In this document: piece by piece, positions 23,111-45,704 of the stretch | Layout of the letters: each line of letters starts with the position of its first letter | Numbering within the stretch: position 1 is the first letter of the stretch | Made by a program: the position numbers and the translations under genes | NCBI GenBank assembly: GCA_036785375.1 | Contig: JAWMAR010000722.1 | Span: 496,001 to 560,000, forward strand | DNA: 64,000 nt | Reading direction: 5' to 3' | From: Leucoraja ocellata | Lineage: Eukaryota | The notes under the pieces: model-generated | The model's input: the letters and a program-made list of their open reading frames with translations, nothing else | Database searches by the model: none | Told to the model about the DNA's origin: nothing

Positions 23111-24546
23111 GGATTTTTCTGTAATGTTTTTTTAAGTTCAGTCTAGAAATACTGTATGGAAACAGGACCTTCAGGCCACTGGGTCCATGCCAACGACCAA
23201 TTGGTTCTATCCAACACTAGGGACAATTTACAATTTACAGAAGGCAATTAACCTACAAACCTCGACGTCTTTGGGATGTGGGAGGAAACCGGAGCAACCG
23301 AAAACAACCCATGTGGTCACAGGGAGAAAATACCAATTACATACAGAGAACACCCATAGTTAGAATTGAATCTGTGTGTCTGGCGCTGTAAGGCAGCAAC
23401 TCTACCCCTGCGCCACTGTGCCGCCCATAATGGTTGAATGGTTCACATTGCCAAGGAATGGCCAAACTAAACATTACTATTATTGTTACACTGATGTGAT
23501 ATATTTCAGCTAAACCCAGATTCCAGGAGAGAGCCATAGAGTCAAACAGCATGGAAACAGGCCCTTCGACCCAATTTACCCACACCGACCAACGTGTCCC
23601 ATCTACACTAGTCCCACTTGCCTGTGTTTGGCCCATAACTCTCTAAACCTGTCATATTCATGTACCTGACTAGTTGTTTCTTAAACATTGCAATTGTCCC
23701 TGCCTCAGTTACTTGCTCGCAGCTCATTCCATACACCCACCACTCTTTGTGTGAAAAGGTTACCCCTCAGATTCCTATTAAATCTTTCCCCCTTCACCTT
23801 AAGCCTATGCCCTCTGGTTCTCGATTCCTCTACTCTGCACAGGGATTTAAATTTGACTGCTGACAGTGGTGAATGTTAAACAGATGCATATTATACACAT
23901 AAGTGCAAATGCATTCATCCTTAATATACTTAATGACAATGGAGTGGGAGAAGGGAGCGCTGTACTCCTGTTGACTGCACTTTACATGTGCCAATTCCCA
24001 AATTGATTAAAGAACGCACATTGCTTAGTACTGCTGATGTAGAAAATAATATATTTATGTTCACTGCCATCCGCTTCCTTTGACTGAGGCCTTGTACAGA
24101 ATTACTGTGCTCAGTGCATTACTAATACAAGGATGGGTGCACACAATTATTACAGATAGATTATTGGCGATGGAATGCTTAGCAGGCGTTTGCTGAAGGT
24201 AAGTGAATCACTGCATCAAGGCAGGAATTAAATAAAGTCCTAGCATCATTAGGTCGATGTGATGGCTGAAGATCCACAGGGATGCTCAATTGTCCAGATC
24301 GCTTTTAGATTGTCTCTCATCAATACTGATAATACTGGCGAATGATGGCTCCCGTTGGCTGCTTCTCAGCGGTGGTGATCTGGCCTCTGTGTCAGAACGT
24401 TTTGTATTCAAGACCCTTCCAGAGAACTGTTCTCCACGTGGACGCATCACTGGAGCGTTGATGAGGTCAGTAGTTTAAGAAAATCTGCCTTTCAAATTAA
24501 CTCTCCCTCAACCCAATAAAACATTCTTCTGATTGTCATCTATGCT

Positions 24547-25170
24547 GGGCGGCACAGTAACACAGCATGTAGAACTGCAACCTCACAGTGCCAGACATCT
24601 GGGTTTGATCCTGACCTTCATAAGTTCATAAGTCATAGGAGCAGAATTAGGCCATTCAGCCCATCAAGTCTACTCCACTATTCAATAATGGCAGATCTAT
24701 CTTTCCCTCTCAACCACATTCTCGCCTTCTTCCCATAACCCCTGACACACTTACTAATCAAGAATCTATATAAATACCCAATGACTTGGCTTCCACAGCC
24801 ATCTGTGGCAATGAATTACACAGATTCACTACCCTCTGACTATAGAAATTTGTCCTCATCTCCTTTCTAAAGATATGTCCTTTTCCTCTGAGTATGCCTT
24901 ATGACCCTAGACTCTCCCACTTGTGGAAACATCCTCTCAGCATCCACTATCCAGGCCGTTGGGTGCTGTCTGTGTGAAGTTTGCACGTTCTTCCTGGGTC
25001 CACGTGGGATTGCAACCAGCTGTCTCTCACATCCCAAAGATGTGCATGTTTGTAGGTTAATTGGTCTCTGCACCATTGCTCCCTGGTGTGCAGGAAGTGA
25101 ATTGGTAATTGATGGTTGGTGTGACTTGGTGGGCCAAGTGCCCTGTTTCCATGCTGTATCTCTAAATTAA
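24547..25170 (+). mobile_element. V-SINE split by a minus-strand CR1 3' fragment (about 24620-24958)
   Basis: SINE head stops at gatcctgacctt (about 24618) and resumes at gggtgctgtctgtgtg (24961) after the CR1 segment. Confidence 0.7.
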
Positions 25171-26154
25171 ATAATATTGCTGGTTGTGGGAACACTCCAT
25201 TTCCCAACACTATATTTAATGTGCAATTAACTGTATTGTGCAATTCATGTTTCTGTCTGTTTTCTGGACAGACATTGACTTACAAGTACAGTTCTCACCA
25301 AAGAGGCTTCCTCCGAGTCCAGAGAGATCATTTAGCTTGTAACGAGCACACATTATATGTTAGACTAAGCTGAAAGGTCACCAGGGTGTATTTAGGGAGA
25401 GCTCTGGAGAAAAAATGAAGCAATCCAGAAGGAGCAAGGCAAATTAGACCCTGGTGAAGGAAGGTATGCAACATGGTCTGACTTTACTTCAATTAGCAGA
25501 ACGTCATAAAGCCCAGGTGAACCCTAATTACCTGGGTTTTAATTTTCCAATTCCTGGCTTGCACTTTGTTCAGCACAAAGTGCCATATAATATCGGATCA
25601 CAATTCTGGATTTCTTCAAAGCTAAGTACTTCCACTGCCAGGTCTATGATTGTTTCCTGAAATGCACTGTGATTACCCTTTCAATGTACACAATTAGCTG
25701 CAAGAAGCTTTTCTGACATCCTGAGATTGTGAAAGATGAGCATAAACGCAATACCTTTTTAATGGGTGAATGATAAACTCACCTGTAGCCATCTTTCTTA
25801 CTGTTACTGAACCGTTTCTATCTGTGAATATGTTGCATACCACCATACAAAGATCTGTTCCAGGCGATTCCAAAATTATTGACTCTAACAAATATAAGGG
25901 ACTAAGGAAGATCCACCTCAAACTTCTTGGCCTCAAAAATGTATCATCAAGCTTTTTCTGCCCCATGATAACAAGTAACGCATAATCAGGTCTGGATTTT
26001 GCAGGGACCCAACCTCTGTATATTGGGGTCAAGTAAGGGTGTGCTTCTGCACCTACCACCCTTCTGAATCTTTTTCACTGCAAGGCTACACCTCGTTTTC
26101 AGTGAGCTCCCTGTCACGAGAGACTAATATACATAATAAAAGAGAAGGTTACAT

Positions 26155-26742
26155 TTTCGACCCGCCTGGAAAGCCCATTTTGCCTGCTGCGGACCGGGGG
26201 CCCGCCCAGAAGAGGCGAGAGTTGGTGAAGGTGGTCGAGAGGTGCAAGGCTGATCATCTCTTCACGGCAGAAGGCCTGGCTCACCTGCCCGTAGAGGAGG
26301 AAGTCGGATGGAGGGCCGCTCAGCAGACCGGCTGTGGGAGCCAGTGCAGTGCCACGACGGTGGAGTGGGCCGCTGGACATCCTGCAACAGCCAGGGGCTT
26401 GGCTGGACGAGGCCTAGCTCGTGGGCCGGACGTGGCCTGCAGTGGTGGAGGGCACCATGGCTACGCTTGGCCAGGCCAACTCTACAATGCTGACAAGACA
26501 CCAGGCCTTCATGGACAGGCCAAGAACCCTGCACATACAACTGGGACTTGAAAATGGCCCCAAAACTGGCAACTCTGTACACTGTCTCAGCGTACAGTGA
26601 TACACTTGTAGTGTATCAGAGATGCTTATCTAAGAGGTATCTAAGTGTTCATGTACAGTGATACTTGTACTGAACTGTATACAAAAAAAATCACTGTACC
26701 TCTGTACATGTGACAATAAAGTACCATTAAACCATTGAACCA
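26155..26742 (+). mobile_element. GC-rich non-autonomous retroposon with a Rex1-like 3' tail
   Basis: GC-rich body ending in tcactgtacctctgtacatgtgacaataaagtaccattaaaccattgaacc, inserted within the RTE relic. Confidence 0.6.
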
Positions 26743-27360
26743 AGATCATAACAATTTTATTCCTCAGGTTGTAGCATGCAAGTGTCGCTTATATTTGTTC
26801 ATAATTGGAGGCCAAGCTCCAAACCATTGCTGATTCCTTCACCAAAGCTTGTGAGAGGATAGGCTTTACAATCAGCATTCAATAGATAAAGGCCCTTGAC
26901 CAATCTGACTCCATGGCACGAGGCCACTCCACAATATTGAAGATTCATGACGAGATCCTGATTAATTGGGACAAGTTCGCAGATTTTGGCATTTGTCCTT
27001 CTTATGTCATGGAGGACAACCACTGTTGACAAAACCCACTACAGGAATTGTTATCCGTTGCCTGAGGAAAAGAGTATTTGAAGATTTTTGTCTAGTCTTA
27101 TATTCTATTCCATATATATAATGTTCTGTACCATGGGTGCCGGAATAAGGACAGATAGGTCACTGGAAAGCTGGAAGATCCATCCATTTGCCTTGATTAT
27201 TATAACCTCTATCCCAATGTCAACCAGAAGAATTACAGCAAGATGATCATCAGAGGGCACCATTGAGTTGGCACAACTATTGCAATTTTGACCCTGGGGA
27301 AATTCAGCGCTGGAGAAAGCTTGATACAAACCTGAAGGAAAAAAATAGTATGTAGATAGT

Positions 27361-27594
27361 ATAGAAACATAGAAAATAGGTGCAGGAGTAGGCCATTCGG
27401 CCCTTCGAGCCTGCACCGCCATTCAATATGATCATGACTGATCATCCAACTCAGTATCCTGTACCTGCCTCCTTCCCATACCCCCTGATCCCTTTAGCCA
27501 CAAGGGCCACATCTAACTCCCTCTTAAATATAGCCAATGAACTGGCCTCAACTACCTTCTGTGGCAGAGAATTCCAGAGATTCACCACTCTCTG
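27361..27594 (-). mobile_element. Young CR1 3' end fragment
   Basis: Near identical to 39637-39885; encodes RVVNLWNSLPQ...GYGKEAGTGY. Confidence 0.9.
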
Positions 27595-27879
27595 GTGGTA
27601 GAGGTAGAGAACTGTGCAATGGGAGCAAGCTATATCAAAGAACTGGCTCAGACATTGGGTGAGAAAGACCTTGTTCCATGGAACATTAAACTCTGCTGCT
27701 TTGATTCTACTAACCTGTCTTTGTTGTTCTTGCGTCATGCCATCTCAACAGCAATTTATTTTAATTTTTTTAATTCTAGGTAGTATCCTTGAATTGGATA
27801 AGTTGATTAAGCTTTTCAGAGGGTAGTTAAGAACTAACCGTGAAGACACACTGTTGTCAACCATTATGTTAACTCCCCT

Positions 27880-28430
27880 CCCCATTCCCACACTGATCTT
27901 TCCATCCTTGGTCTCCTCCATTGCCAGAGTGAGGCCATGCGCATACTGGAGGAACAGCATCTCATATTCTACTTCCTCATATTCACATTCTCATCTTACA
28001 ACCCAATAACATGAACATTGGATTTTGCAATTTCCTGTAATCACCCTCCCTCCCCTTTCTCCCACCATTTCCCCACCCACCTCCAAGTCATCCAATTCCT
28101 TTCCCCTCCTGCGCACATTCCCGTATCCCTCTCTTTCCCCTCACTGATCCTTTCCACCCATTACTCGCCAACTTTACACTACATTCTTCCTCTTATCTCC
28201 TTTTCACCATTTTGTCACTCAATCCATCCATTTGCCATTCAAAGCCCTCTCACCTGTACTCACCTAATACCTACCTGGCTTTGTCCCGCTCCCACCTCTC
28301 TTTTTCAGCTTTCTATTCCCTAGTCCTATCAGTTTAAAGAAGGGTCCCAACGCGAAACATTGCCTGTCCATTCCCTCCATAGATGTCGCCTGACCCTTTG
28401 AGTTCCGTCAGCTTTTCATGCTCTGCTCAA
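27880..28430 (+). mobile_element. Older Penelope-like 3' end
   Basis: LEEQHLIF-like motif, long pyrimidine tract, degenerate hammerhead (tttaaagaagggtcccaacgcgaaacatt). Confidence 0.65.
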
Positions 28431-30807
28431 GAATCAACCATGTTGCCGTGGGTTTGGAATTACCTATAGGTCACAGTCTTTCCAGGGAGAAATTCAGTCC
28501 TTATAATTGTTTTTAGGCAAAGAAATGTGTGATGGGAGCTTGCAATGGTGCTTTCCTTTGGATTAGGAGGGGCTTTGCAATGATTTGTAGAAATCTTCAT
28601 GTTGCAAGCATTTGACCTGAAGGTAAAATCAGTAAAAAGAAAAACCTTCAAGCTGCCATGTTTCTTGAATTATGGGTTGAAATTACATTGTGTGTTATTA
28701 ATAGTGAATGGGATGTATGCGCTAAATCGCCATTATTAAATAAAGGTCTTGGCCTTTTCCATTCAAATTCTGATTAACGTTGCCGTAAAAATAATGGACA
28801 GAATTTCCTTCAGCATATTTACTAATACATTAGGATTAACACAGCTTTTTGCTAATGTTGCACACCGAGACTTCAGAGGTTATCTTCTAATCTCATACTC
28901 TAAATCAGCAATGCTAAGCAAAATACAGACCTTCTAACAAGCCCACAATCTTGCTATTTAGCAAAGTATGCAGCAAACTGTCACCTTGATCCCCCTTGGA
29001 TGCAGCTTTATTGATTTCTCTGACACTATTTTGAAAATCTGATGCGCAAAGAGTTTCCTGGCGTCTTCTTTGGCAAGAGTTTTAGAGTTTAGAGATACTG
29101 CATGAAAACAGGGCCTTCAGCCACCAAATCCATGCTGACTCATTTACAGTAGTTCTATGCTATCTAATTTTCTCATCCACTCCCCACGTATGAGGGGCAA
29201 TTTACAGAGGCTAGTTAACCCACAAATCCGCACGTCTTTGAGATTTGGGAGTAAACCCAGAGCACCCGGAGGAAACCCATGCGGTCATACGGAGAACATG
29301 CAAACTCCACACATACATAATCGGAGGTCAAGATCAAACCCGTGTCTCTGGCGCCGTGAGGCGGCAGTTCTACCAAGTGTGCTGATCTGACATGAGGTCT
29401 TTGATCTGAAGCATTTATTCTTTCCACAGACATTCCCCGACTTATTGAGCATTCATAGCATTTCTTGTCTTTATTTCAGATTTCCAGCAACTGCAGTTGT
29501 TTCTTCATGTTTTCACAGGGAACACATCACAGGGAGAATGTGGAAATTGCACACAACCAGCAGCCGAGGTCAGGATCGGACTCAGGTCTCTGGTTGCTGT
29601 GAGGCAGCAGCTCTACCTGCTGTGCCACTGTGCCTCCCACTGGTTGGGGTACCACGCAGCTATACAAGACATCGGTGAGGCCGCACTTCGAGTATTATGT
29701 TCAGTTTTAGTCATACTGTGACAGGAAAGATGCCATTAAGCTGGAAAAAGGGCAGAGGAGATTTACAGAGAATGTTGCCAGGGCTTGAGGGCCTAGCTAT
29801 AGGGGAAGGCTGGGCAGGCTAGGACTTTATTCCTTGGTGTGGGCTAGGACTTTATTCCTTCGAGGAGTGATCTTATACGGGCATGTAAAATCGAGGGGAA
29901 TAGAAAGGTTGAATACAAAGTCTTTTTCTGAGGGTGGGGGGAATCAAGAAGCTGAGAACATAGATTTAAGGTCAGAGGGGTAAAATGTATAAAGAACCTA
30001 AACAACAACTTTTTCACGCAGAGGGTAGTGGGTATATGGACCGAACGGCCAGAGGAAGTAATTGAAGTAGGCATGTTAGTGTTAGATAGTGTTAGTGGTT
30101 GGGAATTGGCCTGTTTGCACGCTGTATCTCTAAACTAAATAAAACTAAGCCAGTTGGAGATTAGGATTGTTTTGAGAGTTGGCATTGCCTGAATAGACCA
30201 AATGTCCTCCTAAGTCGTAAGAAAATATGAGAATTACTAATTGTGATAACATGTCTTATACTTGGACTACTAACTGGGTTAAGAAGTTCATTTTTAATCT
30301 GATAGTGATTTATTATTGACTATCTTATATTTATAGGCCTGATACCTGGACCACCTGACAAGCTGAAATATTTCCCCTTCATCTGGGTATGATGAGTGCA
30401 ATTTCTTTAAGAGTGATTGTTGTTTTGCAACAAGTTTGTGACAAGGTTCTGCAGCAGTGGATTTATTATGAGTTTTATCATGAGCCCAACAAAGCAAGAC
30501 AGTTTTTTCAGCGGAAGTTTTATGGCATTATTGCATCAGCTTGGCTCTCGTTTCCAAGTCGAGATATATCACTCGCTCAAACTCTTCTCCTGTAATCGCA
30601 AGGGAAAGTGTTGTAATTCACTGTAGATGTGGAACGATTCCCAGGAAATTTCTTGATGCAAGACAGGAGTTTTTTCCGGCGTGCCATTCAAGTCTCCTCC
30701 GTCTGAAAAGAAGGATGCTGACACCAAAACATCCCCTATGGCTGCTGCTTGACACTTTGTGTTTTGCTCAGGATCCCATTGCCAACAGTTCCTTGTGCCT
30801 TCAAGAT

Positions 30808-31128
30808 GCGGTGTAACGACAGTGCAGCAGCAGAGTTGCTGCATTACTGCGCCAGGGACCCGGGTTCTATCCCGACTACGGATGCTCATCTGCACAGGGT
30901 TTGAACGTTCTCCCCATGACCTGCGTGGGTTTTCTCCAAGAAGTTCCGGTTTCTTCCAACACTCCAAAGTCAGACAGGTTTGTAGGCTAATTAGCTTGGT
31001 ATAAATGCAAATTGTCCCTAGAGTGTACAGCATAGTGTTAGTGTGCGGGGGTTGCTGGTCAGCGCGGACTCTGTGGGGCAAAGGGCCTGTTTCCGCGCTG
31101 TATCTCAACACTAAACTAAACGAAACTG
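30808..31128 (+). mobile_element. HE1-like V-SINE
   Basis: tRNA-like head, V-domain, (actaa)n tail. Confidence 0.8.
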
Positions 31129-33737
31129 AACCTCCTTTGGCAATCTGACCAAAATCAGAATAACTAGTCAACTATCTCACTGTGGTCCCTGGAATCTGAA
31201 CATATCAGAATCAGAATAAATGGTGAGAAACCAGGAACCATTGAGGAGCAAGGTTGTTTGGGCATCCATGTATGTAACAGCACAATCAAAATCTACATTT
31301 TCCACACAAAAGGCATGGGGAAATAAGGGCCAGGCTGCTAGCCAACTGCCAAAGAGAAAACCTTTGCCGAGTACAACTCCTTTAAACGTTGCTCCTCTCA
31401 CCTCACGCTAGGTCAACTTATACTGTGATGTTTGAGAAGATTGTGATATTAACATAGAAAAGTACAGCACAGGAACCTGGAATATTTGCATCAAATATGA
31501 TGCCAAGTTAAACTAATCTCCGAAGACAGACACAGAAAGCTGGAGTAACTCAGCAGGTCAGGCAGCATCCCTGTAGAAAAGAAATAGGTGACGTTTTGGG
31601 TCGAAACCCACTGATTTACTCCATCTTATTGTGTCTGTTTCCAGTTTAAACCAGCATCTACAGATCCTTCCTACACATTTAAACTAATCTCATCTGCCTG
31701 CACGTGATCCATTATCCCTCCTTTCCCTGCATATACATGTGCCTAACTAAAAGTCTTTTAAATGCGACTATCAAATCTGCCTCCACCACCAACACTTAGA
31801 AGCACATTCCACCACACTCCGTGTAAAAGAACTTGCCGAGCACAACTCCTTTAAACGTTGCCCCTCTCACCTTTAAGCTGTGGCCTCTGGTCTCTGACAC
31901 TTCCAGGTACTTTGGTATTGAGTGATAAGGCAAGTTAATAGAATTGTGATGTGGCTCAGGCATGATGTGTTTTTGGCCTGTGTGCTAATGGGATGGCCAT
32001 GGCTCTGGTTTGCGTGGGAATGAATCCTCCGTGTCAATGGGGCAGCCGTAGACCTTGACTTGAGTTTTTGCGATTCAATTACCACTTTCTGAGTGAGAAA
32101 GTGAGTTGTACAGCACTAAAAAAGACTTCTGGGACGTGAAATTCTCCCTCAGTTAAAGGAGAATTAATGGGAAAGCTATACATCTTCAACTTTGCAACAA
32201 TGAGGCCTTATCCCATAAATATTCACACCAGGGCCAACTGTGTACTCCAGGGGTAGAATAAAAGATCTTCAAATATTTGCTACACCGAACTGTAGAGCAC
32301 AGAAATGGGCCCTTCCGGCTCATCTTGTCCATACCGATCATGATGCCTCTCTTCACCAATCCCTCTTGCCTGCCTCAGGCTCATATCCCTCTATGCCTTT
32401 CCTGTCTGTATCTGTTCACGTGCATTTTAAACACTGCAGACGTATCTGCCTTTACTACCTCCTGCAGCAGCTCATCCCAGATAGCCACCCACTCTGTGTG
32501 AAAAACCTACTCCTCAGTCTCCTTTAAATTTTGTCCCTCTCATCTTAAACCTGTGCCCTCTAGTTCTAGACACTACTGCCCTAGAAAAAAGAATTTAACT
32601 ATCCTATCTGTACCGTTCATAATTTTCTACGCCTTTACAAGATCATTCCTCAACTTCCTAGGCTCCAGTGAAAGGAACCTCAGCCTATTTAATCTCTCCT
32701 TACAACTGCAGTTCTTCATTCCCGATAACATCCCAATGAATCTCCTCTACATTGCCTCCATTGCCACACCTCCTCCCTGCCCTGTAATGAGCAAAATACT
32801 TCAAACACAATCCAAACAATCTTTTGAAGAAGGGTTTCGGCCCGAAACGTCGCCTATTTCCTTCGCTCCATAGATGCTGCTGCACCCGCTGAGTTTCTCC
32901 AGCAATTTTGTGTACCTCCAAACAATCTTTTCCCGTTTTCCCTCCCCTGCTACGATCAGTCTGAAGAGGAACCCTAGCCCAAAACATCACCCATCCATTC
33001 CCTCCACAGATGCTGCCTGACCTAGCGAGTTATCTCGTGTTTAGGATAATTTATACAATGTTTTGTACAACTGCAACATGACGTCCAGACTTCTATCCTT
33101 GATGCCTATGAAGGCTTTTACCACAGCTATAGTACCTGCAATAATCTCAGTGGTTCATCGCCATTTGTAATATATATATACTGTAAATGCCTTCATAGGC
33201 TAGGGTAATAAGAATAGTCGAGAAAATATCCATCCACCACTAACCCTTGCCTCCAATACTAAGCCTATGTTGGCTCCAGTTAAGTAACGCAGGGTGCAGG
33301 AAGGAACTGCAGATGCTGGTTTACACCGAAGATGGACATAACATGCTGGAGTAACTCAGCGGGACAGACAGTATCTCTGGAGAGAAGAAATGAGTGACGT
33401 TTCTTCAGTTTGTTGTAACCAATTCCTTCTCTCCCAAATAATGCAGAGGCTCTTTAGCAAGGATTAAAATAAACAACTGAAGCTTCACACCCGTTTTGGA
33501 ATGGTTTGAATGATTTTATGATCCATTTTTAAATGTAGTTATTGCTTTACTGGAAGGAAAGATGATTGTTGAAGGCAATTGTCAGTAGCCAATGCTTTTT
33601 TTTCATTATCTGGATCCTTGGGAATAGCACATTTGAAAAGCACTTATTTTCTACTTTTCATTCGTGAGTTATCAATCAAAACAAAATCAGCTCAAGCACT
33701 TATTACATCATAGGAAGGGAAGGTATTACCAGTAGGT

Positions 33738-34618
33738 GCAGCAGCATCTATGGAGCGAAGGAAATAGGTGACGTTTCGGGCCGAAACCCTTCTTCAGACT
33801 GATGGGGGGTGGGGGGGAGAAGGAAGGAAAAAGGGAGGAGGAGGAGCCTGAGGGCGGGGGGATGGGAGGAGACAGCTCGAGGGTTAAGGAAGGGGAGGAG
33901 ACAGCAAGGGCTAGCAAAATTGGGAGAATTCAACGTTCATGCCATCCGGACGCAAGCAACCCAGGCGGAATATGAGGTGCTATTCCTCCAATTTCCGGTG
34001 CTGCTCACTCTGGCAATGGAGGAGACCCAGGACAGAGAGGTCGGACCGATGTAAATCAGCTGACATCTAGAGCAGTGGATGCAGTAGATGAAGTTGGAGG
34101 AGATACACCTGTATCTAGATGTCAGCTGATTTACATCGGGGAGACTAAGCGGAGGTTGGGTGATCGTTTCGCCGAACACCTCTGCTCAGTCCGCAATAAC
34201 CTACCTGAACTCCCGGTGGCTCAGCACTTCAACTCCCCCTCCCAATCCCAATCCGACCTCTCTGTCCTGGGTCTCCTCCATTGCCAGAGTGAGCAACACC
34301 GGAAACTGGAGGAACAACACCTTATATTCCGCCTGGGTTGCTTGCGTCCGGATGGCATGAACGTTGAATTCTTCCAGTTTTGCTAGCCCTTGCTGTCTCC
34401 TCCCCTTCCTTAACCCTCGAGCTGTCTCCTCCCACCCCCCCGCCCTTGGGCTCCTCCTCCTCCCTTTTTCCTTCTTTCTCCCCCCCACCCCCATCAGACG
34501 TTTTGGCCCGAAACGTCGCCTATTTCCTTCGCTCCATAGATGCTGCTGCACCCGCTGAGTCTCTCCAGCATTTTTGTGTACCTTCGATCTTCCAGCATCT
34601 GCAGTTCCTTCTTGAACA
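33738..34618. mobile_element. Penelope-like element with inverted (fold-back) duplication and 15-bp TSD
   Basis: TSD gtattaccagtaggt at 33723-33737 and 34619-34633; GIY-YIG ORF CQLIYIGETKRRLGDRFAEH...KLEEQHLIFRLG (34075-34386) on +, mirrored copy on - (33738 to about 34100). Confidence 0.9.
33770..33797 (-). ncRNA. Minimal type-I hammerhead ribozyme core (best-preserved copy)
   Basis: Minus strand reads CTGAAGA-A-GGGTTTCGGCCC-GAAA-C-GTC: conserved CUGANGA and GAAA boxes, stem II, palindromic ACGU in place of stem III, GUC triplet. Stem I pairing is weak. Confidence 0.6.
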
Positions 34619-35204
34619 GTATTACCAGTAGGTATTGGTGTCTGTCATGCACTTAGTGGGTGGTTAGTTAAATATTAAACCTTGATTTAGTTTCTGTAGA
34701 CTTTAGCCTCTAACATGCTCACACAAATAATCACTTTATATCAGATGTTGATAAGATTCAGTTTTCACACGTCATTGGAGTAGCCTGTTAAGTCAAAACT
34801 CATTTCCAGTCCTAGGAGTATTTTTCCCCCTCTGTCCGATATTTGTTGCCTTGTCATTTGACTTTGTTTATTCTGCGGACTGTCTACACTTTTCCGTGTG
34901 GCTGAAAACTGCTCTTGTTTCTGCCTGCAATTTTTTTTTTGAAAAAGGCCAGGCTTTCACCCAAGGTTTACGGATGATTGCTGCTCGTGGCTCAACCGGG
35001 AGTGGACTGGGACGTTCTTGAATGAGTTGCAGGAATATTGTGCTGAAGCTTTAGCAAAGGACTTCCTCCATATCCAGGCCATTGAACAGATCAGAGGTAC
35101 ACTTAATTTTCTCACCAGTTCCCTACTGTTTGGAATGCAGTTAATTCTTTAACAAAAAAGGTGGGACGTAGAAGCAATTGGATCTGGGCCTATACTCGGC
35201 CCCG

Positions 35205-35365
35205 GTGCAGGAGGCTGAGCACGTAGCCTTGAAGTGCACCTGTGTTGATGGTCAGTAAGGAGGAGTATCTTCCTGAGGAAGTCAAGGAAGCGGTTGCAAA
35301 GGCACGTTCAGAGGTCTTGAAACTTGGTCATGAGTTTGTAGGGGTTGATTATGTTGAACACAGTT
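35205..35365 (-). mobile_element. Rex1-type RT fragment
   Basis: TVFNIINPYKLMTKF...CNRFLDFL...LTINTGALQGYVLS resembles Rex1 SAFNTIIP..L..KL / CNWILDFL / NTGAPQGCVLSP. Confidence 0.65.
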
Positions 35366-35729
35366 TTTCTCCTCATCTCCTTCCTAAAAGAACATCTGTT
35401 ACTTCTGAGGCTATACCTTCTATTGCTAGACTCTCCCACTCGTGGAAAATTCCTCTCCACATCCACTATATCCAAGCCTTTCACTATTCTGTATGTTTTA
35501 ATGAGGTCCCCCCCATTCTTCTAAACTCCAGCGAGTACAGGCCCAGTGCCGACAAATGTTCATCATAGGTTTAAGGCCCTCCTTGAAACCTATCTCCTTG
35601 ACTAAATAATTGGTCATTCCTCCTAACCTTTTGGTCTTTGAAAAGGAGCTGGGGCATTATACCTGCACCTAGAATATACATAGCCCTCTCTTAACTTTGC
35701 GGAAAACTCCACAACCGAGCTTGCCAGTG

Positions 35730-35865
35730 TTGTTGTCATATTGCTGCCTGTGGAAGCTTACTGGGCACAATTTGGCTGCTGTGTTTCCTACATTGCAACA
35801 GTGCCAATGCTCCGAAAGTTGTTTGGTAGCTGTGGGAGTTTTATTGCATGAAATAAATACATTCA
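35730..35865 (+). mobile_element. DeuSINE (SacSINE1/AmnSINE1-like) 3' part
   Basis: attgctgcctgtggaagcttactgggcacaatttggctgctgtgtttcctacattgcaacagtg resembles the recalled DeuSINE consensus. Confidence 0.5.
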
Positions 35866-36199
35866 GCCTTTATTTTTCTATGTTAACGATGATATGCAAG
35901 TGCAAGTGCAAGTTGCTACTGTTGGTGTTTTTGCCCTCATTTGTTTAGCTTAGTTTAATTTTGTTTATTATTGTCACGTGTACCGAGGTGCAGTCAAAAG
36001 TTTTTTTGTTGCCTGCTATCCAGTCGACAGTTACAATCAGATACTCCACAGTGTGCAGATACAGGAGAAGGGGTATAACGTTTACTATAAGATAAAGTAC
36101 AATAAAGTCCGATTGAAGATAGATGGGAGGTCAGGACTGCTCTCTAGTTGGTAATAGGATGGTTCAGTTGCCTGATAACAACACTGCAGTTTTGAGGAA

Positions 36200-36612
36200 A
36201 AAAGGGCGGATTTAAACGTCAAAATCTCCAGTCATTGTGTGGAGGGTGTGGCTCCTCTCCCGAATGAACCTAACTGGGAGTCGACAATGCTGTCACCAGT
36301 TGGAGCCTGAAAGTTAAGGGCCGTGGTGACCTTGACAGCTGGAAGCAGTTCAGTCGATTCTCTGGTTTGTCGTCTGGTAGATCTGCAGCGGGGGATGGAG
36401 TTCGGCAAGGCTCCGCCTGAGGAAATAAATGGATCAGCTATATTTGGCCTGGATTTTATGCTGGAGAGGAGGGGGATGATTTTCCAAAGGTCCCTCAGGA
36501 TTTAACTGAAGGTGCTCCTCAGCAAGGTTCAAAGAACGTTAGGAGCTGATTGACAAGCTGGAAGTCTTCCCGGCATGAAACCTTTTCATTAATCTAAACG
36601 CTGGAAGAGAAG
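36200..36612 (+). promoter_or_regulatory. Candidate IGSF5 promoter and non-coding first exon
   Basis: Repeat-free island with GGGCGG (36204), KLF-type GGGTGTGGC (36244), nuclear-receptor TGACCTTGA (36327) and an AAG|GTAGGT donor at 36613; the ATG exon has an acceptor, so an upstream exon must exist. Confidence 0.35.
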
Positions 36613-38388
36613 GTAGGTAGGAAGAAGGTTCATGTTAATAAGTTATAGGGGCATTCAGTCATGACTGATGTATCGTTCCCTCTCAATCCCATTCTCCTGC
36701 CTTCTCCCCATAATCCCTGACACCCTTATTAATCAAGAATCTATCAATCTCCACCTTAAAAATATATATTGACGACCTTCACAGCCTTCCACAGATTCAC
36801 CACCTTCTGACTAAAGAAATTCCTCCTCAGCTCCTTTCTAAAGTTACGTCCTTTTATTCTATGGCCTCTGGCCCTAGACTCTCCCACTAGGGGAAACATC
36901 CTCTCCACATTCACTCTATCCAGGCCTGAGGCTATTTGGACCCTTGGTTGGTACCTAGAATCTAGAGGGGCTGTTTGGATCATGGCCATAGTAAACAGTC
37001 TGTAGGTGTCCAGTGATGGCCAGGAGGGGAGGTCTTGCCTGTGGTAGGCTACTGACTGCTGTCCAGTTTGTTAATTGTGAGGCACTGTCCAGTTGATGGT
37101 AGGGAGATCTGACTGTATTAATAATAGAAATGTAGAGCGTGCAAAGGCTACTCTGCCCATCTTGCCCATGCTGGCAGGAAATGGATAACACCACTCTGAA
37201 TTTCCACCTATTCCTCACTGACCCTGCCGCTTATGGCCACACTCATGCCCTCAGACTGTGAGTTCCAGACTTCATTACATCTATTACGTTTCCATGCTAC
37301 CCACCCCAGTACCATCACATCCTTCCTGAAATGCAGTGGCCATACTGGTGCGCAGTAATTCCGCATTGTACTTTGCAGTACACACACATTTATCACAGTA
37401 GACCCAAAATGCTCGAGTAACTCAGTGAATATCATAAAGTGCTGGAGTAACTCAGTGAATCAGGCAGCATCTCTGGAGCACATGAATAGGCAACATTTTG
37501 GGTCAAGACCTAACGTCAGACCTGTTCATTTCGATGTTTTAGGTCGGGACTCTTTTTTCAGACTCTGTGGAAGGGCCCCAATCCGAAAGGTCACCTATGC
37601 ATGTCTTCCAGACATGCTGCCTGATTCACTTAGTTACTCCAGCACTTTATAATATACACAAGATTCCAGCCTTTGCAGTTCCATGTGCCTCCACATTTTG
37701 CACAGATTTTACACAGTCTAGGTGGGGCATGTTGGTTAGCATGGGCAAGTTGGGCCGAAGAGCCTGTTTCCAGACTGCTATACTGTATGACTCTAACTCC
37801 AGATTCTACCACACAACTAGGCAATAACGGCAACTTACAATAGCTGACCTTCTTCAGCAGCTTCACAGTGATCTTTTCATGACAGATTGGCGGCATGCCT
37901 TTGTTACGTGAGAAGAAACTGAAGCGCAAGGAAGAAACCCACGTGAAACAGGGTGGACATAAAAACTCGAGGTCAGGATTGAACCCAGATAGAGGCAGCA
38001 GCCCTGCTAGCTGTGCCGCTGTGTCCAAGTGCTTTAATCCCCACCAATGAAGCAAGAATCCTGTGTGTCCTTTTTTATAACTTTATCCATCTGTTCTGCT
38101 ATCCCCAGAGATTCATGAACAAAGTTTGTCTACTTAATATTTTATCACTCGTCCTCTTGTCTTCCTTACCCTTCCCGAATGCTTTTTATTTTCTCGATAA
38201 AGTCATTCTCTGTGATCTGGGTGTCCCCGGCAAGGCCAACATTTATTGTCCACCGCAGTCCTTCAGATGAAGATACTCTGACAATGACCTTTGGGAGGGA
38301 GACTTAGTATTTAAACTGAAAGACGCTAAAGGAACAGCTATATATTTCCAGTTAAGGATGGTGTGCAACTTGGAGAGAAGCTGTAGGT

Positions 38389-38601
38389 CAGGGGTTCCCA
38401 ACCTTTTTCATCCCGTTTACTCCTGGCAACTTTAATAGCACATAACAATGTTATTTCACTTATTTATGAACAACTAATGATGAACAGATACCGGTATACC
38501 AGAACCCAACACAGTCAGTCAATGAGAAAAAATATGTACAAATCCAGATCAACAAATTTACCCCCTGGGTAGCAAAATTTACCTCAGGTTGGGAACCCTT
38601 G
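38389..38601. mobile_element. hAT (Charlie-type) MITE
   Basis: TIRs CAGGGGTTCCCAACCT and AGGTTGGGAACCCTTG; perfect 8-bp TSD CTGTAGGT (38381-38388, 38602-38609). Confidence 0.9.
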
Positions 38602-38697
38602 CTGTAGGTGGTGGTGTTCGGATTGGGTCCAATGCCCTTGCCATTGTTGGTGGTGGAGATTGTGGGTTTGGGTGGTGCCGTCAGAGCAACCTGGGCC

Positions 38698-39065
38698 TTC
38701 TTAGGCCCCCCTCGGTCATGGCTGACCATGGGTGTGTTCAGGGTTGGAGGACGCCTGTGCATGACTTTGTTTAACGTGGGGAGACTGATGGACAGACAGC
38801 CACCACACGGTCCTTGACAGATCTGGGTCAGGATCCAGTGGCATGGAGTCCAAGACGACCGGAGACCCTTTTCTGCTGCAGCCTTCATCCGCCTTCCCAG
38901 CTGTTGTGAAGCTCCACTAAGGTCAGCCATCATCCTCTGCCTGTCCACTGTTAAGGTTTTGGTTGGATTGCTCTTCGTCAGGGACCTCCCCCTCGACCTT
39001 ACCACCATAGGTGGCCCTACCAGGAGCATAGCTCCAGACGGCATCGCTCTCAGGATCTCAGGCTC
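38698..39065 (-). mobile_element. Short RTE-derived non-autonomous retroposon (5'UTR-like part plus 3' end)
   Basis: Flanked by gcaacctgggcc and gcagcctgggcc (11/12 TSD); ggagctatgctcctggtagggccacc resembles RTE/Expander 5'UTRs and ccatggtcagccatgaccg...cctaagaag resembles RTE 3' ends. Confidence 0.55.
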
Positions 39066-39216
39066 GCAGCCTGGGCCATACCAGCACATTTCATAGATGG
39101 TAGATAGATGGGCTTATTTCTCCAAGATGGTGTTGAGCTGCTTACGAATTGTTGGAGCTGTATTCATTCGAGCAAGTGGAGAATACTGACCACATTTGTG
39201 GCATGCCCAACAGATA

Positions 39217-39510
39217 GTTTTAGTTTTTAGTTTCAGAGATACTGTGCGGAAACTGGCCCTTTGGCCCACCGAGTCCGCACTGACCAACGATCACCCCTAC
39301 GCTACTTCTATCTTAGACAATAGTGATGATCTACAGAAGCCAATTAACCTACGAACCCGCACGTCTTTTGAAAGTGGGAGGGAACCGGAGCGCGCGGAGG
39401 AAGCCTATGCGGTCATAGGGAGAACGTTCAAACTCCACACAGACAAGCACCCGTAGACAGGATCGAACCCGGGTCTCTGGAGCTGTAAGGCAGCAACTCT
39501 ACCACTGCGT
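39217..39510 (-). mobile_element. HE1-like V-SINE
   Basis: Complete head, V-domain and tail on the minus strand. Confidence 0.85.
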
Positions 39511-39636
39511 CACTAGATGCTGGAAAGATGTTAGGGTGTCTCGAAGTGAGTCACTCACAATAGAATTCCCAGCCTCCGACCTGCTCTTGTAACCACAGTC
39601 GACACGTGGGTCATATAACCATATAACCATATAACC

Positions 39637-42063
39637 ATAGAAACATAGAAACATAGAAACATAGAAATTAGGTGCAGGAGTAGGCCATTCGGCCCTTCGA
39701 GCCTGCACCGCCATTTAATATGATCATGGCTGATCATCCAACTCAGTATCCCGTACCTGCTTTTTCTCCATACCCTCTGATCCCCTTGGCCACAAGGGCC
39801 ACATCTAACTCCCTCTTAAATATAGCCAATGAACTGGCCTCAACTACCCTCTGTGGCAGAGAGTTCCAGAGATTCACCACTCTCTGTGTGAAAAAAGTTC
39901 TCCTCATCTCGGTTTTAAAGGATTTCCCCCTTATCCTTAAGCTGTGACCCCTTGTCCTGGACTTCCCCAACATCGGAAACAATCTTCCTGCATCTAGCCT
40001 GTCCAACCCCTTAAGAATTTTGTAAGTTTCTATAAGATCCCCTCTCAATCTCCTAAACTCTAGAGAGTATAAACCAAGTCTATCCAGTCTTTCTTCATAA
40101 GACAGTCCTGACATCCCAGGAATCAGTCTGGTGAACCTTCTCTGCACTCCCTCTATGGCAATAATGTCCTTCCTCAGATTTGGAGACCAAAACTGCACGC
40201 AATACTCCAGGTGTGGTCTCACCAAGACCCTATACAACTGCAGTAGAACCTCCCTGCTCCTATACTCAAATCCTCTTGCTATGAAAGCCAACATGCCATT
40301 CGCTTTCTTTACTGCCTGCTGCACCTGCATGCCTACCTTCAATGACTGGTGTACCATGACACCCAGGTCTCGCTGCATCTCCCCCTTTCCCAATCGGCCA
40401 CCGTTTAGATAATAATCTGCTTTCCCGTTTTTGCCACCAAAATGGATAACCTCACATTTATCCACATTAAACTGCATCTGCCAAACATTTGCCCACTCAC
40501 CCAGCCTATCCAAGTCACTTTGCAGTCTCCTAGCATCCTCCTCACACCTAACACTGCCCCCCAGCTTAGTGTCATCCGCAAACTTGGAGATATTGCCTTC
40601 AATTCCCTCATCCAGATCATTAATATATATTGTAAATAGCTGGGGTCCCAGCACTGAGCCTTGCGGTACCCCACTAGTCACTGCCTGCCATTGTGAAAAG
40701 GACCCGTTTACTCCTACTCTTTGCTTCCTGTTTGCCAGCCAGTTCTCTATCCACATCAATACTGAACCCCCAATGCCATGTGCTTTAAGTTTGTATACTA
40801 ATCTCTTATGTGGGACCTTGTCGAAAGCCTTCTGGAAGTCCAGATACACCACATCCACTGGTTCTCCCCTATCCACGCTACTAGTTACATCCTCGAAAAA
40901 TTCTATAAGATTCGTCAGACATGATTTACCTTTCGTAAATCCATGCTGACTTTGTCCAATGATTTCACCACTTTCTAAATGTGCTGCTATCCCATCTTTA
41001 ATAACTGACTCTAGCGGTTCCCCACTACCGATGTTAGGCTAACTGGTCTGTAATTCCCCGTTTTCTCTCTCCCTCCCTTCTTAAAAAGTGGGGTAACGTT
41101 TGCTACCCGCCAATCCTCTGGAACTACTCCAGAATCTAAGGAGTTTTGAAAGATTATTACTAATGCATCCACTATTTCTGGAGCTATTTCCTTAAGTACT
41201 CTGGGATGCAGCCTATCTGGCCCTGGGGATTTATCAGCCTTTAATCCATTCAATTTACCCAACACCACTTCCCGACTAACCTGGATTTCACTCAATTCCT
41301 CCACCTCCTTTGACCCGCAGGCCCCTGCTATTTCCGGCAGATCATTTATGTCTTCCTTAGTGAAGACGGAACCAAAGTAGTTATTCAATTGGTCCGCCAT
41401 ATCCTGGTTCCCCATGATCAACTCACCTGTTTCTGACTGCAAGGGACCTACATTTGTTTTAACTAATCTCTTTCTTTTCACATATCTATAAAAACTTTTG
41501 CAGTCAGATTTTATGTTCACTGCCAGTTTTCTTTCATAATCCATTTTTCCTTTTCTAATTAAGCCCTTCGTCCTCCTCTGCTGGTCTCTGAATTTCTCCC
41601 AGTCCTCCGGTATGCTGCTTTTTCTGGCTAGTTTGTACGCATCATCCTTTGCTTTGATACTATCCCTGATTTCCCTTGTTATCCATGGATGCACTACCTT
41701 CCCTGATTTATTCTTTTGCCAAACTGGGATGAACAATTTTTGTAGTTCATCCATGCAGTCTTTAAATGCCTTCCATTGCATATCCACCGTCAACCCTTTT
41801 AGAATTACTTGCCAGTCAATCTTGGCCAATTCACGTCTCATACCCTCAAAGTTACCTTTCTTTAAGTTCAAAACCATTGTTTCTGAATTAACAATGTCAC
41901 TCTCCATCCTAATGAAGAACTCAACCATATTATGGTCACTCTTGCCCAAGGGGCCACGCACAACAAGACTACTAACTAACCCTTCCTCATTACTCAATAC
42001 CCAGTCTAAAATAGCCAGCTCTCTCGTTGGTTCCTCTACATGTTGGTTTAGATAACTATCCCG
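39637..42063 (-). mobile_element. Young 5'-truncated CR1 LINE, 2.4 kb of ORF2 with a single frameshift
   Basis: ORFs 41011-42096 (endonuclease end LGKSDHNMV, NYRPVSLTSVVG) and 39743-40876 (YLDFQKAFDKVPH, GVPQGSVLGP, FADDTK, VRPHLEY); 1-bp loss near 41018; (ATAGAAAC)4 tail. Confidence 0.97.
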
Positions 42064-42389
42064 TATAACCATATAACCATATAACCATATAACCATATAA
42101 CAATTACAGCACGGAAACAGGCCATCTCGGCCCTACAAGTCCGTGCCGAACAAATTTTTTTTCCCCCCTTAGTCCCACCTGCCTGCACTCATACCATAAC
42201 CCTCCATTCCCTTCTCATCCATATGCCTATCCAAACTGAATCTCTAAGATGTTAACGTTGGCAGTCTTGATCGCAATATTCAATGTTAAGTGTAGGTGGT
42301 TTGATTCACTCTTGTTGAAAACACACCTTGTCTGACACTTTTACTTTGCAAAGATTACCTGCTACTTATTAGCCAATGTTTAGTTTAGT

Positions 42390-43030
42390 TTAAGGTAGAC
42401 AAAAATGCTGGAGGAACTCAGCGGGTGAGGCAGCATCTATGGAAAGAAGAAATAGGCAACGTTTTGGGTCGAGACCCTTCTTCAGACTGATGTTGGGGGG
42501 GGGGGGGGGAAGAAAGGAAGAGGCAGAGACAGTAGACTTGTGGGAGAACTGGGAAGGGGGAGGGGAAGAAGGGAGAATGCAAGGACTATCTGAAATTGGA
42601 GAAGTCAAAGACTATCTGAAATTGGAGAAGTTCATACCGCTGGGGTGTAAACTACTTAAGCGAAATATGAGGTGCTGTTCCTCCAAATTGCGCTGGGCCT
42701 TACTCTGGCCATGGAGGAGGCCCAGGCCAGAAAGGTCAGATTCGGAATCGGAGAGGGAGTTGAAGTGCTGAGCCACCGGGAGATCCAATTGGTTAGTGCG
42801 AACTGAGCGGAGGTGTTGGGCAAAGCGATCGCCGAGCCTGCGCTTGGTCTCGCCGATGTAGCGAAGTTGACACCTGGAACAGCAGATGCAGCAGATGAGG
42901 TTGGAAGAGGTGCAGGTAAACCTCTGCCTCACCTGGAAAGACTGCTTGGGTCCTTGGATGGAGTTGAGGGGGGAGGTAAAGCGACAAGTGTAGCAAGGGG
43001 GTGGGTGGTTTCAGTGGGAAGGGATGAATT
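42390..43030 (-). mobile_element. Penelope-like element 3' part (GIY-YIG endonuclease and terminal repeat)
   Basis: ORF 42612-42932 RQRFTCTSSNLICCICCSRCQLRYIGETKRRLGDRFAQH...LEEQHLIFRL; mutated hammerhead core near 42459-42486. Confidence 0.9.
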
Positions 43031-43036
43031 GACCAG

Positions 43037-43322
43037 AGAGATACAGCATGGAAACAGGCACTTTGGCCCAATGAGTCAACGCTGACCAGCAATCACCAGT
43101 ACGTTAGTTCTATCTTATCCATTAGGGACAATTTACAAAATCCACAAACCTGCAAACCTATAAACGTTTTTGGAATGTGGAAGGAAAGCAGAACACCTGG
43201 AAGAAACCCACATGGTCACAGGGAGAACGTACAAACTCCACATAGCCAACACCTGTAGTCAGGATCGAACCCCCTCCTCTGGCGTTGTAAGGCAGCAACT
43301 CCACTGCTGTGCTGCTGTGCCA
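43037..43322 (-). mobile_element. HE1-like V-SINE
   Basis: Head and V-domain on the minus strand. Confidence 0.75.
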
Positions 43323-43324
43323 TT

Positions 43325-43920
43325 CCACTGTGTTGCCATGGGTCTTGCTGCATATAGGCATAGACAGCCTCATTTGCTGAGGTTTTGAAAATGGAAGTGA
43401 AAATTGTGCAATCATCAATGAAGCACCCCACTTCTGACCTTAAGATGGGAGGAACATCATTGAGAATCAGCTGAAGATGTTTGAGCCCAGCGCACTGGCC
43501 TGAGGAACAGCTGAAGTGGTGTCCTGAGTTGCGATGTTGGCCCTCCAACAACCAAAAGCATTTTCCCTTGTGCGAGGTATAAACCCTGTTATTGAAGCAT
43601 CTTCCTCTTGGTGTCCATTGAATTCCGTTCTACCAGGGATCCTTGATGCTGCACTCAATCAAATGCGTCCTTGATGTCAAAGGCATTAGCCACAGTCCAT
43701 CTCTGGAATTTAGCTCTTTGGGCCTTGGTCCAAGACTGTGATCATGGCCTGAGAGATATCCAAACTTGGCATCGCTGAGCAGGTGATGGATAAGTGCTGT
43801 TTGATGAAAATTTCCATCACTTTGTTGATGAATGAGACTAATAAATTAGTAATTAGCCAGGTTAGATAAGATACCTGATTTCCAAATTGTTGGGTTGAGG
43901 CCAATGGTTGTACTTGGACC
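43325..43920 (-). mobile_element. Old CR1-type RT fragment
   Basis: VPQASALGSNIFS and RSEVGCFIDDCTIF resemble GVPQGSVLGP / FADD motifs. Confidence 0.7.
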
Positions 43921-44113
43921 AAGATTTTGTAAGTCTTTGCTGCACGCAGGTGAGGTGCTAGATGACTGAATGACAGTAAATATCATTGTCTTTATTGAAA
44001 CAGGGCAGCAGAGTTAAGCCAGGTAATTACAGTCCAGTGAGTTGAATGTTAGTGGAAGGGAATTTATTGATAAAAAATACTAAAGGACAAATTAATCTGC
44101 ACCAGGAAATACT

Positions 44114-45658: not shown

Positions 45659-45704
45659 ATGGTGACTGTTCGAAGAGTACTAGCATTATTTAGCATATCA
45701 TTAG
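45659..45704 (+). CDS. IGSF5: IGSF5-like, first coding exon (signal peptide MVTVRRVLALFSISL-G); exon spans 45626-45704
   Basis: Acceptor ttgtatttcag, strong Kozak atcATGG, in-frame upstream TGA at 45641, TAG|GTAAGT donor in phase 1 that joins the Ig1 exon to give ...FSISLGVCLSATIIEGP. Confidence 0.8.

Follow-up and report, generated by a model that had tools for sequence, protein, structure and literature searches.

We report here that a 64,000-nt stretch of genomic DNA from the skate Leucoraja ocellata (contig JAWMAR010000722.1, positions 496,001 to 560,000; hereafter the window, to which all copy counts refer unless stated otherwise) carries a dispersed family of Penelope-like element (PLE) ends, in which a short recurrent motif is almost certainly a PLE hammerhead ribozyme. 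The motif is very probably the minimal type-I hammerhead of the pseudo-long terminal repeat (pLTR) of a Neptune-type PLE with at least three subfamilies, and the same confidence attaches to the overall explanation offered below, the insertion mechanism included. Whereas the ribozyme class itself is already known, the unexpected part is that the 5' ends and the inversions of the copies concentrate at the hammerhead. The layout of the element end, the insertions flanked by target-site duplications (TSDs), the head-to-head pairs, the CpG-driven decay and the structural conservation with respect to distant Neptune relatives are all observed directly.

Results

Identification of the hammerhead family

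The 28-mer of the focal copy lies on the minus strand at 33770-33797 with the sequence given in the original prediction. An exact descriptor of the motif has 5 matches in the window and the 28-mer with up to 3 mismatches has 9, against 0 for either in 100 dinucleotide shuffles. A covariance model restricted to the motif, with 10 window copies and 5 outside loci as its training set, yields 37 matches at E<=1 and 29 hammerhead-like cores at E<0.01 (10 of the 29 being training copies). A fuzzy regular-expression search proved inadequate, finding 9 copies and missing most, and was replaced by a profile of the motif plus 100 nt built from 11 copies; this profile returns 58 matches at E<10, among them 46 element-end fragments at E<1e-3, and nothing below E=1 on the reversed window. 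Two weak covariance-model matches fall outside the profile list: 30695-30739 (+) looks like an old decayed copy with a tail, and 36803-36837 (+), within a long interspersed element (LINE), looks like chance.

The 20 sites listed originally are real, since 20/20 are among the 29 matches at E<0.01, with coordinates correct to about 5 nt. The family is indeed dispersed, but the estimate of about 20 copies was too low in view of the 29 cores and 46 fragments. The high copy number claimed for a ribozyme-bearing family also stands, but nearly all the genomic copies are catalytically broken relics, largely through CpG decay at C11.1-G12 and C15.2-G16.2, and are probably neutral. Both boxes (CUGANGA and GAAA) plus UH are retained in 9/46 fragments, including the focal copy, which alone among the 26 core-spanning copies (1/26) keeps all features.

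The Rfam hammerhead models, recommended originally as detectors, did not serve: a scan of the window returned no hammerhead model among 11 matches at E<=1, and the canonical Rfam families, with full stems I and III and loop-loop contacts, are not matched there. Its top matches, MIR1507, Plastid-psbJ-4 and mir-1756, are inverted PLE pairs under the gathering scores and were rejected. The inverted PLE pairs at 53943-54103, 31520-31676 and 34046-34138 fold into hairpins with sub-threshold Rfam scores for microRNA precursors, and such hairpins are a source of false microRNA or miniature inverted-repeat transposable element calls and possibly of double-stranded RNA.

Layout of the element end and assignment to Neptune

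The 3' end of the element comprises the end of a GIY-YIG open reading frame (ORF), a pyrimidine tract of ~100 nt, the hammerhead, an arm of ~70 nt and an optional 35-nt tail. Nine endonuclease (EN) ends were found, 8 by tblastn and that at 22874-22920 by blastn, and in 9/9 the motif or a remnant of it lies downstream on the same strand, just as had been noted originally for the GIY-YIG ORF ends. The distance from the stop to C3 is 89-113 nt in the 7 measured copies, the tract of the 28334 copy is ~200 nt longer, and a tail of ~35 nt is recognised by a strict pattern in 11/46 fragments. In 14 copies the tract is 75-97% pyrimidine (background 2.6%), and it ends in CAG directly followed by the T of stem I. 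Three subfamilies of 8, 17 and 15 copies, with mean divergences of 5, 11 and 18%, account for 40 hammerhead-bearing fragments. The arm, for example at 34550-34570 (+), has near its end a small conserved hairpin, GCUGAG-NNN-CUCCAGC, which varies mostly in its loop and is a candidate recognition site for the reverse transcriptase (RT).

The longest endonuclease fragment has 59 protein matches, the best from Leucoraja erinacea (75%) and Rhinoraja longicauda (71%), followed by rays, sharks and cnidarians. According to PMC8557442, Neptune elements have a CX2-5CxxC linker between RT and EN, Nematis has a reduced form of it, and Penelope and Poseidon have none. Because homologues carry this linker (38/53 of those having the YIGE motif), we assign the host element to the Neptune type and not to Penelope or Poseidon. 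The window fragment 42615-43010 shows CxxC-YIG-H-H, of the CCHH-type GIY-YIG, its linker being reduced to CxxC where the fragment is truncated; Pfam GIY-YIG is weak on window fragments (E 0.03-0.05), whereas homologue P0006 scores above the curated cut-off. A point against the assignment is that the window holds no PLE RT core and only a 65-aa thumb fragment, so that the label "Neptune-type" rests on homologues. Several annotated skate, ray and shark proteins contain the PLE endonuclease (P0001, P0002, P0005, P0007, P0009 and P0014), some annotated as mucin-2, receptor-transporting protein 3-like or other named genes; these are probably mispredicted exons and possibly cases of exonisation. PLE repeats thus mislead annotation in two ways, by scoring as microRNA hairpins and by entering predicted proteins.

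In the focal insertion (Table 1) the left and right copies are identical at 284/298 aligned bases. The tract of the left copy is 97% pyrimidine across the 40 nt closest to the motif and, with its CAG, may resemble a 3' splice site or an initiator. The endonuclease end of the right copy has 72% identity to the 42615 copy (Pfam GIY-YIG E=0.046), and in its hammerhead the CUGA box is replaced by ACG, which lengthens an internal palindrome (34491-34523).

Structure and conservation of the hammerhead

The motif consists of C3-A9, an extra A, a 4-bp stem II, GAA, a palindromic ACGU and C17. The original identification as a PLE-borne minimal type-I hammerhead with a palindromic stem III agrees with the consensus of PMC4209133; the extra A after A9, likened originally to a natural viroid hammerhead, is no viroid-like exception, since that paper lists it as a conserved trait of PLE minimal hammerheads. 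Stem II is closed by G10.1-C11.1 and keeps 4/4 pairs in 17/26 core-spanning copies, and ACGU is the majority state of the palindrome (15.1-16.1) to which stem III is reduced, broken in many copies by CpG decay. Stem I does pair poorly, as first remarked: U-A or U.G plus G-C give 2 contiguous pairs, followed by A x C, one more mismatch, U-A and A-U, which places it at the bottom of the published 2-5 bp range.

An exact-pattern scan of genome contigs, in which the core was fixed while stem I and 10.4-11.4 were left free, located 5 loci (L001-L005) in two metagenome-assembled genome (MAG) records, in DNA that is animal-like. An RT-EN ORF lies just upstream on the same strand in L002 and L004, that of L002 having 88% identity with a protein of Acropora; inverted copies accompanied by ORF fragments are present in L003, and the flanks of all the loci match the skate model around the motif only. 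The free stem I positions pair in 5/5 loci, over at least 3 bp, and relative to skate there are two-sided changes at 2.2-1.2 (G-C to C-G), 2.1-1.1 (U-A to A-U) and 10.4-11.4 (U-A to C-G). The covariation score is 0.40, against 0.21 when shuffled and <=0.105 when slid; it is not a probability, and the set (10 well-preserved copies of the 26 in the window plus the 5 loci) amounts to ~4 independent families. The catalytic positions of skate match those of the coral-like relatives, and between subfamily majorities 0/11 catalytic columns differ, vs 14/60 arm columns. The kept core together with the two-sided stem changes in coral-like relatives therefore indicates that the fold is under selection across Neptune elements.

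Several points weigh against this reading. The match of the core in the outside loci follows by construction from the scan pattern, the skate stem I has 2 contiguous pairs vs 3-6 in the five relatives, and the two-sided change in stem II is seen only against L003-L005. Inside the window stem II varies one-sidedly (U-A to U.G) with no two-sided change between subfamilies, so that the covariation anticipated originally appears against distant relatives and not among the window subfamilies. Conservation of the core above its flanks, also anticipated, is weak inside the window: non-CpG substitutions number 20/316 at catalytic positions vs 208/2016 in the arm (p=0.025), a small difference in a test biased by the choice of seeds by motif and hence given little weight. 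The evidence of selection within the window is thus weak.

The contigs of L001-L005 are filed in two bacterial MAGs, yet they carry animal-type Neptune PLE DNA; these two assemblies probably contain host contamination. One zebra-shark protein (P0009, 1/59) terminates in read-through sequence consistent with the motif if N7 is changed, stem I being unreadable from amino acids. A search with a read-through peptide for other elasmobranch hammerheads gave 1 match among 6 candidates and was not used.

5' ends, inversions and the insertion mechanism

Leaving out the match at the window edge, 45 fragments could be compared: the hammerhead (columns 1-30, beginning of stem I through GAAA) holds the 5' ends of 26 and the 40-nt arm those of 5, while 14 reach into the tract, 9 of which extend to the ORF by hand count. 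Per base, stopping occurs at a rate of 0.035 in the hammerhead vs 0.003 in the arm (~12-fold; binomial p=5e-8), although this p is inflated and speaks less strongly for a hot spot than its value implies, since partners within one composite insertion are not independent. Among the hot-spot ends, 13/26 are in columns 3-8 and the other 13 are spread over columns 10-29. Detection bias was rejected as the cause, since copies cut artificially are still found in 27/27 cases at column 41, 26/27 at column 51, 22/27 at column 61 and 11/27 at column 71 (the test copies include model seeds). No 5' end lies at the cleavage site (column 36; 0/45) and none in columns 30-43; cleaved RNA is therefore not the template, in agreement with PMC11167929. 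In the PLE and hammerhead literature searched, available as partial texts, we found no earlier description of such a hot spot or of the skate family.

Neighbouring fragments are arranged head to head in 8 cases and tail to tail in 1. Junctions occur at micro-palindromes of the ribozyme, namely TCAG-N-CTGA at 6607 and 10521, spanning stem I plus the first box, and TTTCGG-N-CCGAAA at 54025, spanning stem II; in the copy at 34491-34523 the switch lies inside the motif, yet the sequence continues upstream. TSDs are 12-15 bp long, and a TSD score >=10 is reached by 4/25 units vs 0.7% of 150 random pairs, most older units having none; most of the 10 solo copies tested likewise show no convincing TSD. 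The solo copy at 32825 starts inside CUGA and has a perfect 15-bp TSD, so that such copies must have inserted short, and later deletion is an unlikely origin for the solos with an abutting TSD (32825, 50052).

We propose the following mechanism, every step of which is conjectural. By analogy with published PLE work, the source element would give a partial-tandem transcript with two hammerheads, which could pair through ACGU, making stem III, and would cut after C17 weakly, probably only with the help of the element protein. Nicked target DNA would serve as the primer for reverse transcription, on one strand, the other or both, and synthesis would start inside the RNA, at the arm end or the tail end. 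The template would be uncleaved RNA, and the copies would therefore contain the whole hammerhead. For an anole PLE, PMC11167929 describes cleavage helped by protein, a template that stays uncleaved, priming at internal sites and the extension of both strands. On crossing the structured, palindromic hammerhead, the enzyme may most often stall, fold back or switch template, which would yield solos of 95-140 nt, short inverted pairs and small deletions in the motif. Whether template switching is the main cause of the 5'-end hot spot is, in our judgement, evenly balanced.

The main competing account, rather unlikely in our view, is that the enzyme runs off a natural 5' end of the RNA, the transcript starting or being processed a few bases 5' of CUGA. 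Priming being internal, the RT would then also prime in the upstream pLTR and run off after 100-140 nt to give solos, while running off by the second RT of a dimer would give the short inverted partners; the short stem I would be explained as well. The cluster of ends in columns 3-8 is what this account expects, and in L003 and L005, too, short copies have their starts 3-8 nt 5' of CUGA. Initiators follow the consensus YYANWYY, which TCAGTCT fits with A+1 at the mismatched position 2.3, and with only 3 nt upstream the forced fold costs 1.1-3.8 kcal/mol. PMC2377424 places PLE promoters inside the pLTR, and an initiator-like TCACT is reported in a rotifer pLTR (PMC3846280). However, half of the ends are scattered over columns 10-29, copies that continue upstream have internal deletions or switches in the motif (34491-34523), and in D. 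virilis the start site and the hammerhead are ~120 nt apart, the start lying upstream and ahead of an intron (PMC2377424, PMC4209133). The consensus itself is, moreover, loose, and L001 does not fit it.

The short copies could also be a separate non-autonomous element, SINE-like (short interspersed element) or retrozyme-like, in which the hammerhead-arm-tail unit of 100-140 nt has its own transcription and is moved by Neptune proteins. The excess of 26 short over 9 ORF-linked copies and the TSDs of some solos (32825, 50052) would suit such an element, which we nevertheless consider improbable, as the 5' ends vary over ~27 nt with no common upstream sequence, the solos belong to the same three subfamilies as the ORF-linked copies, no hammerhead-bearing tandem array is found among 17 Tandem Repeats Finder (TRF) rows, and retrozyme units should start at the cut site. 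Slightly more improbable still is that the tract and CAG form a 3' splice site and that the short copies derive from spliced or splicing-intermediate RNA. The pyrimidine-rich tract ending in CAG at stem I has this appearance, and a D. virilis intron ends at helix I (PMC4209133); but no exon is shared upstream of the short copies, the tract is kept in 9/9 ORF-linked copies, a GT donor is present at the stop in 1/7 copies, and the candidate donors inspected by eye leave stem I no longer. We retain template switching on uncleaved RNA as our working proposal.

Cleavage competence

We lean slightly towards a hammerhead that is cleavage-competent in the source elements. Published PLE hammerheads cut weakly and as dimers (PMC4209133), or only with the protein of the element (PMC11167929). 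The folding calculations would tell against competence: in ViennaRNA the stem II probability is 0.00-0.05 in the 6 core-bearing window contexts folded, and in the focal subfamily GAAA is buried in a favoured rival hairpin (P=0.92). Forcing the hammerhead fold costs 5.4-8.4 kcal/mol in skate copies and 2.7-8.5 in the relatives; because relatives with well-paired stems need just as much, this cost does not discriminate, and we rejected thermodynamic folding as an argument against a ribozyme.

It is also possible, with a lower probability, that the motif is vestigial, that is, inherited from active Neptune ancestors and no longer cleaving, having been kept for protein binding, as a promoter or as a splice site, or simply through a short history. 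A stem I that consists of just U-A or U.G plus G-C, the burial of the core in rival folds, and the lack of any copy beginning at the cut site are all in keeping with this, as is the report that catalytic mutants of the anole PLE insert normally in vitro (PMC11167929). On the other hand, 11/11 catalytic positions are the same across the 3 subfamilies and as in coral-like relatives, and stems I of 2 bp occur in PLE hammerheads of Drosophila, Culex and Oikopleura (PMC4209133, Fig. S3).

Two further observations concern the folding of the motif. A purine run over box 1 and stem II (33755-33797 (-), and in other copies) can pair with bases just past the cut, and from subfamily to subfamily positions 11.4 and 1.1 tend to agree, with G at both or A at both, which could reflect an inhibitory switch or shared ancestry.

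Feature coordinates and surrounding sequence

Table 1. Coordinates of the focal insertion, the other PLE copies and a second repeat in the window
Feature	Position	Strand	Remarks
Focal insertion, two 5'-truncated PLE copies head to head	33738-34618		between perfect 15-bp direct repeats
Left TSD	33723..33737	+	15 bp, perfect
Right TSD	34619..34633	+	15 bp, perfect
Left (inverted) copy, 3' arm	33738..33767	-	without tail, cut short at target site
Focal minimal type-I hammerhead	33768..33799	-	assigned from sequence
Focal stem I, 5' strand GU	33799-33798	-	
Focal box CUGAAGA	33797-33791	-	extra A 33790
Focal stem II GGGU/GCCC (4 bp), UUCG loop	33789-33778	-	
Focal GAA	33777-33775	-	palindromic ACGU 33774-33771
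Focal C17	33770	-	predicted cut between 33770 and 33769
Focal stem I, 3' strand AC	33769-33768	-	
Left copy, pyrimidine tract	33800..33910	-	CAG end just before U2.1
Left copy, GIY-YIG endonuclease end	33911..34128	-	5'-truncated, internal deletion, one stop; tblastn
Head-to-head inversion junction	34046..34138		26-bp palindromic arms
Right copy, GIY-YIG endonuclease end	34111..34386	+	
Right copy, tract, hammerhead, arm, tail	34387..34618	+	tail ~33 nt (~34586-34618)
Longest PLE 3' fragment	42389..43012	-	CxxC linker remnant, GIY-YIG end 42615-43010, tract, hammerhead (42485; G12 changed to A), arm
Composite insertion	6511..7385		inverted short copy 6511-6611(-) joined at TCAG-A-CTGA to short (+) copy; also RT-thumb fragment (57% to P0006), EN end, hammerhead 7201, duplicated arm, tail
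Solo 95-nt copy	32825..32919	+	5' end inside CUGA box; perfect 15-bp TSD 32811-32825 / 32917-32931
Head-to-head pair, long hairpin	53912..54103		joined at centre of TTTCGG-N-CCGAAA; nested in older copy (53856-53897 and 54107-54147)
EN end, tract, hammerhead 51753, arm	51428..51842	+	U16.1 changed; 14-bp TSD with 1 mismatch, duplicating host splice donor
EN end, tract, hammerhead 61417, arm	61195..61515	+	palindrome now ACAU
EN end, tract, hammerhead 23017, arm	22874..23114	+	ACAU; preceded by two short tandem copies 22732-22859
Inverted pair	56715..57158		(-) 56715-57013 EN end to tail; (+) tract, hammerhead 57062, arm
Older copy: EN fragment, longer tract, hammerhead 28334, arm	27856..28425	+	hammerhead decayed
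Whole family span	2..63800		46 fragments
Further hammerhead copies	2155+, 3286-, 6247-, 8094+, 10522+, 13014-, 14214+, 15665+, 20876+, 31609-, 32961+, 33403-, 37521-, 37564+, 50052+, 50594+, 52217+, 52987-, 53847-, 53859+, 55731-, 55749+, 63765-		
Second SINE-like repeat, examples	43037-43100, 45829-45892, 31052-31106, 25103-25163		

The window resembles vertebrate non-coding DNA, with a GC content of 38-48%, LINE RT ORFs, a Tc1 transposase and two Ig-like exons. The latter, at 51102-51416 (+) and ~62680-62980 (+), have splice sites, match Pfam C2-set_3 (second exon) and, weakly, ig and SYG-1 (first exon), and probably belong to one host cell-adhesion gene, which we take to be IGSF5-like. A PLE insertion lies right after the first of them, the splice donor being duplicated within the TSD (51415-51428 / 51843-51856). 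Of the fragments within the host intron (51470-62650), 8 share the strand of the exons and 5 lie on the opposite one; thus these small numbers give no sign of selection against sense copies. Frameshifted LINE ORF2 fragments, presumably CR1/L2-like, lie at 39743-42132 (-) (Pfam RVT_1 E=3e-27) and 17892-19404 (-), and a Tc1/mariner transposase remnant in two frames at 46687-47693 (-) (HTH_Tnp_Tc3_2, HTH_SB). A second abundant dispersed SINE-like repeat, which to us resembles elasmobranch HE1, occurs at ~20 sites and abuts some PLE fragments. A perfect 160-bp tandem duplication (729-1048) is either a recent event or an assembly artefact.

Discussion

The hot spot of 5' ends and inversions can be quantified and provides a direct genomic handle on PLE insertion: it tells run-off at the end of an RNA apart from template switching and speaks against a cleaved RNA template. 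A more specific idea, for which we see a somewhat smaller chance than for run-off in general, is that the RNA of Neptune PLEs truly begins at the hammerhead, with the initiator in stem I, and that internal priming in the upstream pLTR mass-produces hammerhead-arm copies of ~100-140 nt and their short inverted partners; if true, one step would explain the prevalence of solos among PLE hammerheads, the minimal stem I and the inverted pLTRs. If the density of this one window is typical, scaling by hand puts the relics (29 per 64 kb) at ~1 million in a skate genome of 2.2 Gb and the intact cores (1 per 64 kb) at ~34,000, the latter a figure that derives from a count of one and is uncertain by well over tenfold. 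With ~1 million relics and perhaps tens of thousands of intact cores, this would be, were the idea above to hold, about the largest ribozyme load reported in a vertebrate. At such a density elasmobranchs would also offer a very large natural mutational series for testing a hammerhead with a 2-bp stem I. Excerpts of the paper on the 2.2-Gb skate genome (bioRxiv 10.1101/2025.06.08.657570) make no mention of Penelope or of a ribozyme.

Comparison with known systems

Minimal PLE hammerheads with the extra A, a palindromic 15.2-16.2 and a 2-bp stem I were described in 2014, including fish Neptune and Poseidon (PMC4209133), and the motifs of its Fig. S3 include no cartilaginous fish. The metazoan motifs share with those of skate CUGANGA, the extra nucleotide, G10.1-C11.1, GAAA, the palindromic CG and UH, and likewise a position in a pLTR downstream of RT-EN, mostly as single truncated copies, with pairs on opposite strands. 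The Neptune motif of Acropora digitifera (Fig. S3) has the same 4-bp stem II and 4-nt loop; its stem I has 3 bp, whereas that of skate has 2 bp with U-A or U.G, the published 2-bp cases being all G-C. The upstream flank is C-rich in skate and U-rich in the published minimal hammerheads (PMC4209133). Reported copy numbers are 4,000 in coelacanth, 9,000 in Xenopus and >6,000 in Acropora; the skate density of 29 per 64 kb, if the window is typical, is far above the 4,000-9,000 per genome of coelacanth and Xenopus.

Non-LTR retrozymes (PMC7229834; bioRxiv 10.64898/2026.07.22.740005), which the latter preprint reports in one chondrichthyan, are also short non-coding repeats with type-I hammerheads related to PLE ends. 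Unlike them, the skate copies are dispersed and not tandem, have a minimal and not a canonical hammerhead, and do not have ends set by the cut. A tandem retrozyme was rejected, 0/17 TRF rows having repeated hammerheads; close same-strand pairs exist in the window, never with two intact cores.

The focal locus, like the PLE insertions described in PMC3846280 and PMC8557442, combines an inverted 5'-truncated copy, a palindromic junction, a tail at one end and a short TSD, and solo pLTRs are likewise common to both systems. The TSDs are 12-15 bp in skate vs 8-10 bp in Adineta (PMC3846280), and the passages of these two papers contain no link between the hammerhead and the junctions or 5' ends, in contrast to the skate copies. 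The Poseidon element PAc of Anolis carolinensis (PMC11167929) belongs to another clade, which has no Zn-finger linker whereas the skate endonuclease homologues carry one, and it differs further in a start codon at stem II that is absent from the skate copies. Its priming takes place 85-92 nt past the cut, compared with an arm end ~65-70 nt and a tail end ~100-105 nt past the cut in skate. PAc nevertheless resembles the skate family in its pLTR hammerhead, in an optional tail of 30-40 nt, and in genomic copies that contain the uncleaved hammerhead and have no ends at the cut site.

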